Positions 58,844-62,360 of a stretch of DNA of 64,000 nt are shown one piece after another. Within the stretch, counting starts at the first letter, position 1. Every line of letters starts with the position of its first letter. Source of the DNA: Escherichia phage HMD-P10; sequence record PV469800.1; one strand, written 5' to 3'. The position numbers were made by a program, and so were the translations under genes. Under the pieces are notes generated by a model. That model was not told the DNA's origin. It worked only from the letters and a program-made list of their open reading frames with translations, and ran no database searches.

Positions 58844-59224
58844 ATGGCTTATCGTGCACCTAAATTCATCAACAAAGACAACTTTCGCAACGTACTGGAG
58901 AAGGCACTTGATGAAAAATTTAACGGTAAATTGATTGTTGTTCACGCATTCAATTTCAAGTATGATATTAACGGGAATAAAATCAACCATTACACGGCAA
59001 CCATGTTAGATGGTACACTATCAAGTGAAAAAGCCGTACTGAATGCACTTGCTGGACGTGGTAAAAACCTGATAAAATGCGATAAGAGACGTTATCAGGG
59101 CGGCGCATATGGTTACGATGATGCTGTTTACCATCTTGAAAATATGGGATATTCAGTGGAAAAAGCTGGAGTGTCTCAAATAATCGGCAGTGACGGCTAT
59201 GTGACAATTTTCAAAATTAACTGA
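58844..59224 (+). CDS. small early-type protein (cassette gene 1)
   Basis: Start at ATG 58844 behind conserved leader ACTAGGAGATTCAAAAATG; track start 58802 lies inside leader hairpin. Confidence 0.45.
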   Translation: MAYRAPKFINKDNFRNVLEKALDEKFNGKLIVVHAFNFKYDINGNKINHYTATMLDGTLSSEKAVLNALAGRGKNLIKCDKRRYQGGAYGYDDAVYHLENMGYSVEKAGVSQIIGSDGYVTIFKIN

Positions 59225-59322
59225 TAAAGTACTTTACAAGGGGCTTATAGTTCGATAAAGTAAGCCCCAGATAAAGAGCTTTATCACTCAATCCTAAATT
59301 GGAGATTCTAAAATGGCTATTA
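59224..59322. repeat. 99-bp perfect direct repeat (pair A, copy 1)
   Basis: Identical to 61463..61561; includes promoter-like TTTACA-17-TAAAGT, GGGGCTTA/TAAGCCCC hairpin, palindrome GATAAAGAGCTTTATC, RBS and first codons ATGGCTATTA. Confidence 0.85.
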
Positions 59323-59606
59323 TCAAAAACGTTGTAGTTCCTGCAAAAACTCGTGATGACGCTCGCATCATGGCGAAAAAGTTAGGTGGGAAAGTGATTG
59401 ACAACGGAAAACAATCTGCTGTAAGATGGGGCGTGAAGACTGATAAACAGTTGAAGTTAAAAAATTCACCAATAAACCTTTTTACATGTGTAAACACTAT
59501 CGGGAAGACAAATGTATACACGAAAAAGGCATATATCAGACGCGTAGCCATGACATCACCTATTCGCACAATGAGAAGTCATGCAAAGCTGAAAATTAAT
59601 CGTTAA
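59313..59606 (+). CDS. small basic protein (cassette gene 2)
   Basis: 97 aa; conserved leader TTGGAGATTCTAAAATG. Confidence 0.45.
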   Translation: MAIIKNVVVPAKTRDDARIMAKKLGGKVIDNGKQSAVRWGVKTDKQLKLKNSPINLFTCVNTIGKTNVYTKKAYIRRVAMTSPIRTMRSHAKLKINR

Positions 59607-59703
59607 AGTACTTTACAAGGGGCTTAAAAGCTGATATCTTAAGCCCCAGATAAAGAGCTTTACCACTAAATCAAGTCCTTAAACTAGGAGATTCAAAAAT
59701 GAA
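59604..59703. repeat. 100-bp perfect direct repeat (pair B, copy 1)
   Basis: Identical to 62261..62360. Confidence 0.85.
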
Positions 59704-60211
59704 AACTGTAGACGCTACCTTTGAAGTTGTAAAAGAAAAATTCACCATTGTTTACGAAGCTGTTAATTGCTACGAAGCAAGTCATAATCTTGATAATTGG
59801 GAGTTTACAGATGACCATCAAGGCGGCGTGGCTATTAAAAATCCCAACTGTCAGCGTAATGGATTTAAATATGCAATCCCTTTACATTACAGCCTTAAAC
59901 AGCTTTCAAGTGACTATGCAAAACAAGGCCGGGAAAATCCATCAAAAGAGGCTTACATCAGCTTACAGAAAGAACTAGAAAGAGATTTGGATGCTTCAGA
60001 GTATAACATTGCCGCTAAAGTTGTGGATGCCAACGGTAAAACGATTTTAGACAGTTTTTATATTGGTTATGCTTTCGATTGGTGCTACAGTGACGGCGAT
60101 GATTTAGATGACAGGCTAAAAGAGGAAGTGAACAACGCAGACGCAGAATCTGAAGTATTAGAACGCTTGGAAGCATTAAAAGATTCAGTGATGAATATCT
60201 TTAAGAACTAA
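59699..60211 (+). CDS. hypothetical protein (cassette gene 3)
   Basis: 170 aa; conserved leader. Confidence 0.45.
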   Translation: MKTVDATFEVVKEKFTIVYEAVNCYEASHNLDNWEFTDDHQGGVAIKNPNCQRNGFKYAIPLHYSLKQLSSDYAKQGRENPSKEAYISLQKELERDLDASEYNIAAKVVDANGKTILDSFYIGYAFDWCYSDGDDLDDRLKEEVNNADAESEVLERLEALKDSVMNIFKN

Positions 60212-60298
60212 ATAGATTTCTTTACACGGGGTTATCAAGCTGATAAGATAGCCCCAGATAAAGAGATTTATCAACTGTCCTAAACTGGAGATTCAAAA

Positions 60299-60595
60299 AT
60301 GAAACTATCAAATAAAGTCCGTGAAAATCTAAGCAAGTTGCTTAATAAAATTGATTTCATTGAAACATCAAGGAATAGTCATGATGTTATGGAATGGTTA
60401 CACGGAAAAATCAAAGGCCGTCGTGTAGTGATTTGCTTATGGAATAGTTGCAGGGAATATAAAAAACCTGTATTACAAGTCAATATCTATGATGATACTT
60501 TCAAAAGCCCTGTAAAGTCTAAAAGCGATTTATTAGAATCTTATGAGATAACTGTAAATGGCAAGGTATCACGTAAAGAGGAAGCACCATGTTAA
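60299..60595 (+). CDS. hypothetical protein (cassette gene 4)
   Basis: 98 aa; variant leader CTAAACTGGAGATTCAAAAATG. Confidence 0.45.
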   Translation: MKLSNKVRENLSKLLNKIDFIETSRNSHDVMEWLHGKIKGRRVVICLWNSCREYKKPVLQVNIYDDTFKSPVKSKSDLLESYEITVNGKVSRKEEAPC

Positions 60596-60921
60596 TGATG
60601 GGTATCACTGCAATCATTGCCATTATAGCACTTTACAAGGCTTATAGCGCATATAATTTGGCAAGTAAGGCAATCACGCAGCAGGTCAATAATAACCTTG
60701 TAATGAGCTTTCTGGAGCGCTTAAGCGATGAACAAATAAAACGGTTAGAAATGAGCTTCAGATTTCAATCAAAAACTTATCAAATCAGCGACATTTTCAA
60801 AGATGATTTTCAGCTTGTCGATGATTATAACTCTCTGATAAATGCTTTAAATATCAGTGATTTAAAAGATTATCATGCTGTAATAGTTCAAGAATTGAGC
60901 AAACGAAAAAATTCCTCTTGA
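60589..60921 (+). CDS. hypothetical membrane protein
   Basis: 110 aa; N-terminal hydrophobic segment; overlaps upstream stop. Confidence 0.35.
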   Translation: MLMMGITAIIAIIALYKAYSAYNLASKAITQQVNNNLVMSFLERLSDEQIKRLEMSFRFQSKTYQISDIFKDDFQLVDDYNSLINALNISDLKDYHAVIVQELSKRKNSS

Positions 60922-61014
60922 TTTTGGTTTTTAAAACAAGTAAATTACTAATCAACGGGGAGGGAATGACCTTCCCCACTAAGTAAAATCCTTAAACTAG
61001 GAGATTCAAAAATG
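60916..61014. repeat. 99-bp perfect direct repeat (pair C, copy 1)
   Basis: Identical to 61964..62062; TTGATT-17-TAAATT promoter, GGGGAGGG-AATGA-CCTTCCCC stem-loop, RBS and ATG. Confidence 0.85.
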
Positions 61015-61170
61015 ATTCAAATAGGTGATAAAGTTATCTGGAACGATATAGACAATGATTTATGCACAAAAATTGTAATTGTCTTAGAGCTTGATTATAT
61101 AATTGGTGTTGCAACTGTTGCAGATAATGATATAATCTTTGATGTTTTAATCAGTGAGCTATCGAAATAA
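61012..61170 (+). CDS. small protein (unlisted ORF, cassette gene 5)
   Basis: 52 aa ORF behind conserved leader. Confidence 0.35.
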   Translation: MIQIGDKVIWNDIDNDLCTKIVIVLELDYIIGVATVADNDIIFDVLISELSK

Positions 61171-61193
61171 GCCTTAAACTAGGAGATTCGAAA

Positions 61194-61466
61194 ATGTATA
61201 CTACTAACAACGGTCGCACTTTGAACGTAACCCTGCGCCACTATGTGAACGGTGTAATGCACTTTGAGGATTTACAGGCTGAACAACACATCTTAGATTG
61301 GCAAGTAGCAGGACTGCAAAAAACTGCTACAGGATATGGGAAAAAAATCCCAACTAGCTGGAAAGTATACTACGAAGGACGTTTGCGCAGAATTTATCAA
61401 GATGTATACAGCAATAGCGCAACAAGTTACATCATGGTAAAAGGTAAAAAATTGAACTTAGTATAA
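61194..61466 (+). CDS. hypothetical protein (cassette gene 6)
   Basis: 90 aa; leader ACTAGGAGATTCGAAAATG. Confidence 0.45.
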   Translation: MYTTNNGRTLNVTLRHYVNGVMHFEDLQAEQHILDWQVAGLQKTATGYGKKIPTSWKVYYEGRLRRIYQDVYSNSATSYIMVKGKKLNLV

Positions 61467-61561
61467 AGTACTTTACAAGGGGCTTATAGTTCGATAAAGT
61501 AAGCCCCAGATAAAGAGCTTTATCACTCAATCCTAAATTGGAGATTCTAAAATGGCTATTA
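61463..61561. repeat. 99-bp perfect direct repeat (pair A, copy 2)
   Basis: Identical to 59224..59322. Confidence 0.85.
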
Positions 61562-61956
61562 ATAACCGTGAGTTATCAATCTTAAAAGCACGTTTGACCG
61601 TCAACCGGATTAATGTTATCACATCATCAGCACCGGATGAGACATTGCACAACATTATCGGGAAGATTCAAAGTGTTATCTTAGACGTTGAAAACGTAAA
61701 AAACTCATTGGCTGACGTTGCAGCAGGTATCACGCTAGACGGTGCACAATATGAAATGGCTGACATGTTAGGCAAATCTAAGGTAATGAATAAAGAGCTT
61801 GATTTAAAAATGTTTCGTTTTGCTGTTAAGGTGTGGCTATCTGTCGAGTATGACGCAAATTTTGCAATCGCTGACTTTTTTGCAACATGGTTGCAACGTA
61901 ATTTAACAAATCATGATTTTCGTGATATCTGCGATGTAATTTACGCAGAACTATAA
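61552..61956 (+). CDS. hypothetical protein (cassette gene 7)
   Basis: 134 aa; same first three residues (MAI) as 59313 gene because repeat extends into CDS. Confidence 0.45.
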   Translation: MAINNRELSILKARLTVNRINVITSSAPDETLHNIIGKIQSVILDVENVKNSLADVAAGITLDGAQYEMADMLGKSKVMNKELDLKMFRFAVKVWLSVEYDANFAIADFFATWLQRNLTNHDFRDICDVIYAEL

Positions 61957-61963
61957 AAATTTT

Positions 61964-62062
61964 TCTTGATTTTGGTTTTTAAAACAAGTAAATTACTAAT
62001 CAACGGGGAGGGAATGACCTTCCCCACTAAGTAAAATCCTTAAACTAGGAGATTCAAAAATG
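61964..62062. repeat. 99-bp perfect direct repeat (pair C, copy 2)
   Basis: Identical to 60916..61014. Confidence 0.85.
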
Positions 62063-62260
62063 GCTATTATTAACGGCTTAAACATTGAAACTACTCACAT
62101 CAAAGACATTAAAGTCGGTGATGTAGTCCTTTCCCACGGCGTAGAAAAAACTGTCACTGCAAAGGATATCAAAGAGGATTCTTTCATGGGTAGAACTCTC
62201 TTCGGTGATTCTTATTGCTTAGGTTATCTTGCAGTTTTAAAAGTTGTCAAAAATAACTGA
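62060..62260 (+). CDS. hypothetical protein (cassette gene 8)
   Basis: 66 aa; conserved leader. Confidence 0.45.
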   Translation: MAIINGLNIETTHIKDIKVGDVVLSHGVEKTVTAKDIKEDSFMGRTLFGDSYCLGYLAVLKVVKNN

Positions 62261-62360
62261 TAAAGTACTTTACAAGGGGCTTAAAAGCTGATATCTTAAG
62301 CCCCAGATAAAGAGCTTTACCACTAAATCAAGTCCTTAAACTAGGAGATTCAAAAATGAA
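62261..62360. repeat. 100-bp perfect direct repeat (pair B, copy 2)
   Basis: Identical to 59604..59703. Confidence 0.85.

Follow-up and report, generated by a model that had tools for sequence, protein, structure and literature searches.

The three pairs of perfect direct repeats found in a 64-kb stretch of Escherichia phage HMD-P10 DNA (PV469800.1; this whole stretch is the window) are, we consider it likely, copies of one regulatory cassette of composite make-up, which stands before almost every gene of a variable early gene row; these copies recombine with one another and so reshape the row. The window belongs to a Felixounavirus (a Felix O1-like myovirus of the Ounavirinae), and the module family is confined to the plus strand of a region of small genes at 58.75-63.85 kb (58752-63851); no module copies were found in positions 1-58,700.

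A sequence-only reading of this DNA had described three interleaved pairs in the order A1-B1-C1-A2-C2-B2, each running from upstream of a promoter through the ribosome-binding site (RBS) and the first codons. The pairs are real, all of them exact (99, 101 and 99 nt), and their order is correct. Pair A (59224-59322 and 61463-61561, 99 nt) cannot be extended, and pair C (60916-61014 and 61964-62062, 99 nt) is likewise as described; pair B, given as 59604-59703 and 62261-62360, is identical over that span, but its end had been set one base short, the true repeat being 59604-59704 and 62261-62361 (101 nt). The described extent is essentially right, with C stopping at the ATG, B at the ATG plus one codon and A at the ATG plus three codons; both B proteins thus start with MK and both A proteins with MAI, and the proteins behind paired repeats then diverge, falling into separate families by BLASTP clustering. 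An assignment to promoter, RBS and first codons also fits: a 17-nt spacer separates the -35 and -10 hexamers, and 8 nt ahead of the ATG there is a conserved GGAG. No other exact direct repeat in the window is as long as these three (the next, of 56 nt, lies in another region), and their length of 99-101 nt makes chance unviable as an explanation. What the earlier reading missed is the family of which they are the most similar members, comprising ten intergenic modules and one RBS-only copy. The ten modules are:

58752..58846, plus strand: first module, type II-like, before F9; -35 TTGACT 58754-58759, -10 TAATAT 58777-58782, hairpin 58794-58811, GGAG 58832-58835, ATG 58844
59224..59322, plus strand: A1, type I; -35 TTTACA 59233-59238, -10 TAAAGT 59256-59261, stem arms 59240-59248 and 59260-59268, GGAG 59301-59304, ATG 59313
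59604..59704, plus strand: B1, type I with another loop variant; -35 59612-59617, -10 TATCTT 59635-59640, stem arms 59619-59627 and 59639-59647, GGAG 59687-59690, ATG 59699
60212..60301, plus strand: third type I variant, before F13; -35 TTTACA 60221-60226, -10 TAAGAT 60244-60249, stem arms 60228-60236 and 60247-60255 (GGGGTTATC/GATAGCCCC, including one T.G pair), ATG 60299
60916..61014, plus strand: C1, type II; -35 TTGATT 60918-60923, -10 TAAATT 60941-60946, hairpin 60957-60977, GGAG 61000-61003, ATG 61012
61463..61561, plus strand: A2, type I, identical to A1; -35 61472-61477, -10 61495-61500, ATG 61552
61964..62062, plus strand: C2, type II, identical to C1; -35 61966-61971, -10 61989-61994, hairpin 62005-62025, ATG 62060
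62261..62361, plus strand: B2, type I, identical to B1; -35 62269-62274, -10 62292-62297, ATG 62356
63196..63289, plus strand: type II, before F21; -35 TAGACA 63196-63201, -10 TAAATT 63219-63224, hairpin 63235-63251, ATG 63287
63758..63851, plus strand: type II, before F22, a gene that continues past the window end; -35 TTGCAA 63758-63763, -10 TAAATT 63781-63786, hairpin about 63797-63814, ATG 63849

All ten follow one sigma-70-like pattern of a -35, 17 nt and a -10, then a hairpin, GGAG and the ATG, and each takes up all of the intergenic DNA between the upstream stop codon and the next start codon. Repeat starts coincide with or abut stop codons (59222-59227, 59604-59606, 60919-60921, 61464-61466 and 62258-62263): the genes ending at 59606 and 61466 both stop with the TAA of TAAAGTAC, and the TGA that closes F14, at 60921, falls within the C1 -35 hexamer. 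All modules have a 25-nt RBS block in common, and the Shine-Dalgarno region GGAGATTCNAAAATG occurs 11 times, every copy on the plus strand at 58.8-63.9 kb. The hairpins are G/C-based, with stems of 7-9 bp; in type I the hairpin covers the spacer and the -10, in type II it starts 10 nt past the -10. The 9-bp type I stem is retained across 29 sequence variants, with compensatory changes on both sides at stem depths 3, 5, 7, 8 and 9 (five of the nine positions), and a TAnnnT -10 at 17-nt spacing persists in 25 of these 29 variants despite turnover of the loop. The hairpins are stable, since their minimum free energies are near -12.5 to -13 kcal/mol and those of shuffled sequences near -4, but such energies are silent on the functional strand. 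The 20 nt before the type I -35 are, by inspection, about 76-80% A+T. No T-run follows the stems on their 3' side, and a scan for intrinsic terminators did not call them. From this anatomy, the modules are putative promoters of the host sigma-70 type, and the hairpins have a putative role on RNA. As to timing, the Felix O1 ORFs that follow such modules peaked in expression at 5 min (ORFs 16, 20, 21 and 22) or at 25 min (ORFs 17, 19 and 23) by RT-PCR (PMC3185647), that is, timing was early for four of the seven.

Between the modules lie the cassettes, several of which are missing from one relative or another:

58844..59224, plus strand: F9, cassette gene, 126 aa; missing in Felix O1 and ASO1A
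59313..59606, plus strand: F10, cassette gene, 97 aa; missing in REP9, GEP101, IME338 and Felix O1
59699..60211, plus strand: F11, cassette gene, 170 aa
60299..60921, plus strand: F13 (98 aa) and F14 (110 aa), two-gene cassette with a 7-nt overlap and no module between; neighbours in 36 loci
61012..61170, plus strand: F15, cassette gene, 52 aa; in about 10 loci, missing in 28
61194..61466, plus strand: F16, cassette gene, 90 aa; an RBS-only copy of the module 3' part lies upstream
61552..61956, plus strand: F17, cassette gene, 134 aa; in nearly all relatives examined, missing in SUT_S820
62060..62260, plus strand: F18, cassette gene, 66 aa; missing in several loci
62356..63198, plus strand: F19 (180 aa) and F20 (77 aa), two-gene cassette; neighbours in 39 loci

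What separates F19 from F20 is a GCCCC..GGGGC-TTTT hairpin resembling a terminator, together with an RBS, and no module. F15 is flanked by two copies of CCTTAAACTAGGAGATTCRAAAATG (60989-61014 and 61171-61196), which differ by one base. None of the row genes had a Pfam hit, and every PHROGs match was to a family of unknown function.

The row was compared with 43 related loci. Among 38 related loci, 31 gene arrangements were counted, and nearly every variable junction holds exactly one module of 85-90 nt. Exceptions are the loss of F13 between F11 and F14 in GEP101, IME338 and L033, and the n143-F13 junction of one locus, where a full module is absent. In relatives, the promoter of the first module precedes other genes, F23 in SME50 and F27 in ASO1A. 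The clearest recent event separates the sister phages SUT_S820 and SUT_S920, which are 100% identical over all 12 shared genes and differ by a clean 864-bp deletion in SUT_S820. This deletion is flanked by modules at positions equivalent to C1 and C2, and its junction is a chimera that joins the promoter half of one flanking module to the hairpin/RBS half of the other, as predicted for a product of the C1xC2 type; the crossover falls between the -10 and the hairpin, within about 12 identical bases. Chimeric junction modules were also found in Felix O1 versus L024, in ASO1A versus L032, in REP9 and in IME338, and the junction of an indel distinguishing L025 from its relatives lies within a module, too, with crossover in the 3' part of the module for Felix O1 and, for both IME338 and L025, at the RBS/ATG. 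In Citrobacter phage Michonne, a module and its gene are duplicated in tandem (430 bp). Cassettes also change slots, as F18 sits on either side of n108 in some loci, n106 follows F20 in Michonne, and n116 follows F21 in L037. No B1xB2 product was found, and an A1xA2-type product occurs in one record only, that of phage DE7. The earlier proposal of homologous exchange, by which cassettes are deleted, duplicated or swapped, is thus supported, by comparison among relatives, through the arrangements, the SUT_S820 deletion, the Michonne duplication and the slot changes, and also by an excess of near-identical modules within genomes. Pairs with at most one mismatch that stand before different genes are more frequent within than between genomes, the excess being 5.5-fold in type I (p = 6e-7) and 23-fold in type II (p = 8e-4), in both cases counted over pairs that are phylogenetically non-independent. 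Some lineage-specific variants are common to the paralogous modules of one genome, such as loop c in Felix O1 and GGGGTTTA/TAAACCCC in REP9. In a first sample of 11 genomes, an overall within-genome excess was absent for type II modules. Homogenisation of the modules is episodic.

We propose that each module would supply its small gene with a promoter and translation signals of its own. The type I hairpin, transcribed only from upstream, would attenuate or end the upstream transcript, and the type II hairpin would lie at the extreme 5' end of the new mRNA. As about ten direct copies that are 80-100% alike lie within 5 kb, they would be substrates for the general recombination machinery: a crossover of two modules would delete or duplicate the intervening genes, gene conversion (non-reciprocal exchange) would yield identical copies, of which the three perfect pairs of the window would be the clearest cases, and cassettes may also land in other slots.

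Could the repeats instead be conserved regulatory signals only, held alike by purifying selection and with no real part in genome change? Many module positions are invariant across three genera, and similarity is, on average, greater between modules that occupy the same gene position in different genomes than between paralogs of one genome; furthermore, selection for expression plausibly acts on the second codons, GCT and AAA, and the sharing of these first codons may stem from selection for efficient translation initiation and not from recombination. However, the identity extends to positions that vary freely in other copies, among them the loop of 11 nt, the hairpin-to-Shine-Dalgarno spacer, and the bases around the upstream stop. 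Loop variants occupy different gene positions in different genomes, and loop and tail variants reassort among these positions. Together with the within-genome enrichment of near-identical paralogs and the real deletions marked by chimeric junctions, this renders an account by selection alone improbable. Still less probable is that the identity or the arrangement arose in assembly or polishing, through short reads that were collapsed, mis-assigned or led along a wrong path of the repeat graph. Repeats of 80-100 nt are indeed close to read length, and the gene order of DE7, unique among 214 records, is an exact alternative path through a graph of two repeat families, so that the DE7 arrangement could be a misassembly. 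Yet the gene order of the window is that of the independently assembled KEP1, and also that of SME50 and NBEco004 save for an extra gene, F23, before F9; exact repeats of 57-98 nt occur in this row in many independent records, including the Sanger-era Felix O1 (57 nt) and wV8, and phages JN01 and H12 carry module A with 100% identity over 92 nt. The 12 or so identical bases at the SUT_S820 junction are, moreover, too short for an assembler to misjoin.

We give equally little credence to a dedicated cassette system, integron- or MITE-like, in which the modules would be recombination sites whose hairpin is recognised by a protein of phage or host that actively excises and inserts gene cassettes, a speculation also raised by the authors who described the PeSL elements of T4-like phages. 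It would accommodate the hairpin conserved with compensatory changes, the cassettes found in different slots (F18 around n108, n106 in Michonne, n116 in L037), and DE7, which has both reciprocal junctions expected when a circle is excised and then re-inserted at a different module. But neither Pfam nor PHROGs revealed a recombinase, integrase or transposase domain among the row genes, the modules all share one orientation and stand in register with the genes, unlike inserted MITEs, and the crossover points are scattered along the module (SUT_S820, Felix O1, IME338, L025), which fits general homologous recombination better than a fixed cleavage site. Recombination between copies of a regulatory module remains the reading that we prefer. 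A bolder version of it, which we regard as rather doubtful, is that the row is truly mobile, with circles excised between two modules and re-inserted at any module, the hairpin stimulating the exchange. The circular intermediates are putative, and are suggested only indirectly by the unique and possibly misassembled DE7 record, where a deletion junction and a circle-closure junction accompany a block re-inserted in circularly permuted order. Were the row such a mobile array, Felix O1-like phages would keep reshuffling and trading a pool of early host-takeover or anti-defence genes, integron-like but without an integrase, and DE7 would exemplify this in nature, with the two reciprocal junctions of a single event.

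Repeats of the same sequence family and at the same genome position have been recorded before, as direct repeats of Felix O1 (Whichard et al. 2010, PMC3185647) and as DR_1 to DR_9 in the wV8 RefSeq entry (NC_012749); the text of the wV8 paper does not mention the DR repeats. The 57-bp repeat of Felix O1, CTTTACATGGGGCTTAAAAG...CCCCAGATAAAGAGCTTTACCACT, is a type I module, and its 39-bp repeat, TTGACACTGGTTTTTAGATAGATTAAATTACACATCAAC, corresponds to a type II module's promoter half. These records list the repeats, without promoter and hairpin anatomy, a role in recombination or comparison across genomes, and leave them uninterpreted.

The row resembles an integron in lining up small genes that are apparently dispensable one by one, with a repeated site able to form a hairpin at the bounds of each; its content differs among relatives, and its cassettes switch slots. 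Integrons need an integrase of the tyrosine-recombinase class, attI and attC sites and the folding of single-stranded attC, and their cassettes are usually promoterless. In contrast, each unit here has a promoter-like sequence of its own, the row lacks an integrase or other recombinase domain, and crossovers are dispersed; we therefore rejected membership in the integrons, the resemblance being one of outcome only. Susskind and Botstein's modular theory of phage evolution, with the boundary sequences of lambdoid phages, offers another parallel, in which short conserved linkers are preferred points of homologous exchange. Linkers and modules have in common a short conserved intergenic sequence and exchange between otherwise unrelated modules; linkers, however, serve exchange between the genomes of co-infecting phages or of prophages, usually with just one at each junction, whereas the modules form a multi-copy intragenomic family with regulatory content. 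Such linker sequences are discussed in PMC2839356.

The closest counterparts are found in T4-like phages, namely the promoter-early stem-loop (PeSL) cassettes (Arbiol et al. 2010, PMC2839356; Comeau et al. 2014, PMC4122927). Their promoter in T4/PST is TTTACW-N17-TAYWAT, and their GGGG..CCCC stem-loop is placed between the two hexamers, on top of the -10 or just 3' of it. PeSLs and modules alike combine a sigma-70-like promoter pattern with a stem-loop of a G-run and a C-run in comparable positions, span the distance from an AT-rich upstream stop to the start codon with a Shine-Dalgarno at the 3' end, cluster in hyperplastic ORFan regions that differ between close relatives, and contain the junctions of insertions, deletions and replacements. 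They differ in that promoter activity, terminator activity and mini-circles of PeSLs were shown by experiment, whereas the modules are known from their sequence; in that the modules are longer and far more uniform, with perfect pairs of 100 nt and two clear types; and in that the modules reside in the Ounavirinae, another subfamily than that of the T4-like PeSL phages. A sensitive blastn search with modules A and C gave no similarity to T4-like sequences, matching only Ounavirinae and one mislabelled Staphylococcus record. Shared ancestry was rejected on these grounds; given a Felixounavirus window and matches restricted to the Ounavirinae, the modules are analogues of PeSLs in architecture and not their homologues. 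The recombination between repeated modules that relatives of this phage reveal, with genes deleted, duplicated and relocated, parallels that already described for T4-like phages.

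The three pairs of exact direct repeats (A1/A2, B1/B2 and C1/C2) lie within a row of small + strand genes, 3' of a macro-domain gene (57539-58324) and a strong terminator (58354-58395). Megablast assigned the window to Felixounavirus (Felix O1-like myoviruses of E. coli and Salmonella), with ~90 % identity and patchy coverage against relatives between 57 and 64 kb, and the row corresponds to Felix O1 genes 14-23. The sequence-only reading had described the pairs as perfect, in the order A1-B1-C1-A2-C2-B2, and as ending within the first codons of genes that then diverge. All of this proved accurate, including the order, and pair B even extends one base beyond its claimed limit:

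59224-59322 and 61463-61561, + strand: pair A, 99 nt, ending in ATG plus three codons
59604-59704 and 62261-62361, + strand: pair B, 101 nt, ending in ATG plus one codon
60916-61014 and 61964-62062, + strand: pair C, 99 nt, ending in ATG

At its 5' end each repeat coincides with or adjoins the stop codon of the upstream gene, and the proteins encoded behind paired copies are unrelated. No other exact direct repeat in the window is as long, and their exactness over 99-101 nt of complex sequence rules out an origin by chance or low complexity. The next longest, of 56 nt (21565-21620 / 23100-23155), lies elsewhere; together with others of 34 and 31 nt (15502 / 16168, 15825 / 16149), it presumably corresponds to repeats within two adjacent tail-fibre-like genes of Felix O1 (genes 76, 77). 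The cassette genes gave zero Pfam matches, and their PHROGs matches were without exception to families of unknown function, so that gene content offers no lead to a recombinase or a biological role. Between the terminator at 58354-58395 (Felix O1 t13) and the first module there is a 420-nt non-coding stretch (58325-58750), whose counterpart in some relatives is annotated with a small ORF; about five TTCATTTTCAAANNGTGCAGR-like motif copies (~58399, 58471, 58510, 58556 and a weak one at 58716), three of them arranged in tandem (39-45 nt), could form a protein-binding array or an origin-like region.

Pairs A and B are type I and pair C type II versions of a module, a repeated unit of putative promoter, hairpin and ribosome site placed between genes. 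Using modules A and C as nhmmer queries, we found five type I, five type II and one RBS-only copy in the row, and none in the other 58 kb of the window; GGAGATTCNAAAATG occurs in 11 copies, exclusively on the + strand at 58.8-63.9 kb. From 5' to 3', the two types consist of:

Type I, + strand (A1, B1, the F13 module, A2, B2)
TAAAGTAC, its TAA serving some upstream genes as stop codon
-35 hexamer TTTACA
9-bp stem GGGGCTTAN / NTAAGCCCC, its 5' arm filling the spacer, with an 11-nt loop in which a TAnnnT hexamer begins
AGATAAAGAGCTTTAYC, a short variable stretch, the SD block and ATG
Type II, + strand (the F9 module, C1, C2, the F21 and F22 modules)
position-specific -35 (TTGATT, TTGACT, TAGACA or TTGCAA) and a 17-nt spacer
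-10 hexamer TAAATT or TAATAT
~10 nt, frequently ACTAATCAAC
hairpin GGGGAGGG..CCTTCCCC, then ACTAAGTAAAGTCC, then the same SD block as in type I

The TAnnnT of type I begins exactly 17 nt past the -35 hexamer and extends into the 3' stem arm. If transcription starts 6-8 nt past the -10, the hairpin of type II would come at the extreme 5' end of the mRNA, and that of type I would be transcribed from upstream only. Our literature search did not find transcription-start mapping in Felix O1-like phages; RT-PCR of Felix O1, in which expression is maximal at 5 min for ORFs 16, 20, 21 and 22 and at 25 min for ORFs 17, 19 and 23 (PMC3185647), is partly consistent with early promoters. The hairpins fold at ~-12.5 and -13.1 kcal/mol (shuffles ~-4) without difference between + and - strand (-12.5 vs -12.5; -13.1 vs -12.8 kcal/mol), and these energies therefore do not tell which strand, hence RNA or DNA, matters. 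Three genera supply 29 distinct type I variants, in which two-sided changes at 5 of 9 positions preserve the stem, as in REP9 (GGGGTTTA/TAAACCCC and GGTGCTTA/TAAGCACC) and in Erwinia phages (GGGGTTA/TAACCCC). T1, A2 and T6 of the -10 are likewise kept in 25 of the 29, the remaining loop turning over, and this pattern of conservation indicates that the promoter-like hexamers and the stem are both under selection. Rfam has no family for these hairpins, as the sole match to 58,000-64,000 at E <= 1 was a meaningless sub-threshold miRNA. Directly 3' of the type I stem stands AGATAAAGAGCTTTATC (59269-59285, also 59648, 60256, 61508 and 62305), the AGATAAAGAG part of which is nearly invariant in Felixounavirus and Mooglevirus copies. 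In A1 and A2 the core of AGATAAAGAGCTTTATC, GATAAAGAGCTTTATC, forms a perfect palindrome; we set it aside as a candidate operator, since the majority of copies, in other modules and genomes, carry an imperfect CTTTACC, and selection for the palindrome appears doubtful.

Sixteen GenBank and 27 IMG/VR loci were compared after clustering of their genes. The row is collinear in order and highly variable in content, with 31 distinct arrangements between the macro-domain gene and family F21 in 38 loci, and a module of 85-90 nt, exactly one, stands at nearly all junctions that vary. Gene pairs lacking a module persist, F13-F14 being adjacent in 36 loci and F19-F20 in 39. The module-less F19-F20 gap of the window (62899-62964) has a terminator-like hairpin, GCCCCTCACAGGGGC plus TTTT, followed at once by AGGAGG and the F20 start; a terminator so close in front of an RBS is unusual within a two-gene unit that is conserved. 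Module type goes with the upstream gene: behind F17 the module is type II in all cases, be it F18, F19 or gene n108 that follows, implying that crossing over takes place in the 3' SD block, common to both types. Some genes change place altogether, with F18 ahead of n108 in two loci and behind it in four, n106 of Citrobacter phage Michonne behind F20 rather than behind the macro gene, and n116 of locus L037 behind F21. A single metagenome, IMG/VR sample 3300045988, yielded twelve Felix O1-like contigs (L017, L021-L023, L025, L026, L029, L031, L032, L034, L037, L039) in many different cassette arrangements, and is thus a ready-made population to study cassette turnover.

Crossovers between paired repeats predict three deletion products. 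That of C1 and C2 (F14-C-F18) is present as a single contiguous match in Salmonella phage SUT_S820, that of A1 and A2 (F9-A-F17) in phage DE7 only, and that of B1 and B2 (F10-B-F19) is absent from 246 matching records. SUT_S820 and its sister phage SUT_S920 have 12 shared genes that are 100 % identical, and their aligned loci are 99.7-99.8 % identical; SUT_S820 is without exactly 864 bp, comprising F16 and F17, and the genome lengths differ accordingly, by 863 bp. The module at the junction takes its promoter half from the F16 module and its hairpin and RBS half from the F18 module, with the crossover located in ATCAAC(G)GGGAGG. An assembler misjoin would need a longer stretch than this, and the SUT_S820 deletion is therefore a real and recent module-by-module event. 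Further junctions have modules that are chimeric or transplanted: the F9-F10 difference separating Felix O1 from L024 (genes 98.2 % identical), the F9 difference separating ASO1A from L032 (98.4 %), and the losses of F10-F11 in REP9, F10 in IME338 and F18 in L025. Furthermore, Michonne (L014, 2730-3590) carries a 430-bp tandem duplication of a module and a 258-nt gene, identical at 426 of 431 positions. At the duplication junction, a module ending in ATG is immediately followed by the CTTTACA of the next, leaving a full promoter/RBS/ATG unit without a gene behind.

The case of DE7 (OL825705; L011, 3400-7520) is open to two readings. Its F10-F16 block is gone from between F9 and F17 and present after F21 in circularly permuted form (F16, an A-type module, a fusion of an F10-like gene with the 3' end of F11, F14), bordered by type II copies identical over 78 nt. 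Such an order would be expected if a circle had been excised in an AxA crossover and then re-inserted in a IIxII one, a route resembling the mini-circle model demonstrated experimentally for the promoter-early stem-loop cassettes (PeSLs) of T4-like phages. It is also what an alternative path through an assembly graph having these two repeats would give, and among 214 records DE7 is alone in having the arrangement. Because it is both unique and an alternative graph path, we treat it as consistent with recombination and unverified: DE7 may have arisen either by natural excision and re-integration or by repeat-induced misassembly.

Loop variants a (TAGTTCGATAAAG), b (AAAGCTGATATCT) and c (AAAGTCTGTAAAG) differ in gene position between genomes; ahead of F19, the window, NBEco004, SUT_S920 and GEP101 have loop b and six others loop a. 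Rare variants are common to paralogous modules of one genome, as are loop c at two sites of Felix O1 and a doubly substituted stem at two sites of REP9. Exact repeats of 40-98 nt occur in the row of every relative, although not in the same pairings, and ASO1A too has identical modules before F15 and F18, with the other promoter allele. Counting near-identical pairs (<=1 mismatch in 88 nt, ahead of different genes; 41 loci), we found 15/440 within against 109/16958 between genomes for type I (5.5-fold, p = 6e-7) and 3/408 against 5/15853 for type II (23-fold, p = 8e-4), the pairs of either type not being phylogenetically independent. Over the whole set of pairs the mean effect is small, with orthologous position still the best predictor; among the first 11 genomes, type I paralogs of one genome were on average only slightly more alike than modules from different genomes, and type II showed no such excess. 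We therefore dropped continuous homogenisation (global concerted evolution), as the excess is clear only in the near-identical tail; homogenisation is episodic rather than continuous, proceeding by gene conversion or recent module replacement.

The proposal that the repeats reflect recent or ongoing homologous exchange is thereby supported for the phage group rather than for this particular stock: the deletion between the sister phages and the excess of identical copies within genomes constitute direct comparative support, and as a case it is unusually clean. Typing, biocontrol and therapy directed at Salmonella and E. coli make wide use of Felix O1-like phages, and the early-gene row, whose putative products plausibly have host-takeover or anti-defence roles, is the chief site of difference between close relatives. 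PeSL-type modules account for its fast variation (31 arrangements in 38 genomes), predict spontaneous deletions and duplications while production stocks are propagated, identify the row as a region where short-read assemblies can err, and mark natural, self-expressing slots for engineered genes.

The repeats of Felix O1 and wV8 were already on record, as 57-bp and 39-bp repeats listed in the Felix O1 genome paper (in the gene gaps 15/16 and 19/20; 18/19 and 20/21; PMC3185647) and as DR_1 to DR_9 annotated in this row of the wV8 RefSeq record (NC_012749); neither source interprets them, and in our literature search no paper was found that relates PeSLs to Felix O1-like phages. PeSLs are repeated intergenic units that start at the upstream stop codon in AT-rich DNA, combine a sigma-70-like promoter with a GGGG..CCCC stem-loop, mostly between -35 and -10 or over the -10 and at times just downstream, and end in SD and start codon; they are clustered in hyperplastic ORFan regions, where inter-PeSL recombination gives rise to indels and mini-circles (PMC2839356, PMC4122927). 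At the level of sequence, the window modules share every architectural and comparative feature of PeSLs, and they may also share promoter activity, terminator activity and circle formation, but their bearer belongs to the Ounavirinae and is not T4-like. By sensitive blastn, modules were found only in Felixounavirus, Mooglevirus and, weakly, Kolesnikvirus, and never in T4-like phages. Felix O1-type modules at 97.8 % identity in GU169904 (Staphylococcus phage SA1, 147 kb) suggest that this record is chimeric or contaminated, and PP892526 (I14.1) has a Tequintavirus taxonomy line and a Felixounavirus-like sequence. Felix O1-like phages appear to carry PeSL-type regulatory and recombination cassettes that are analogues, not homologues, of PeSLs. 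A mechanism known only from T4-like phages is now extended to an unrelated subfamily via unrelated sequences. This argues for promoter-hairpin-RBS cassettes as a general solution, reached by convergence, that lets virulent phages exchange genes in modules.
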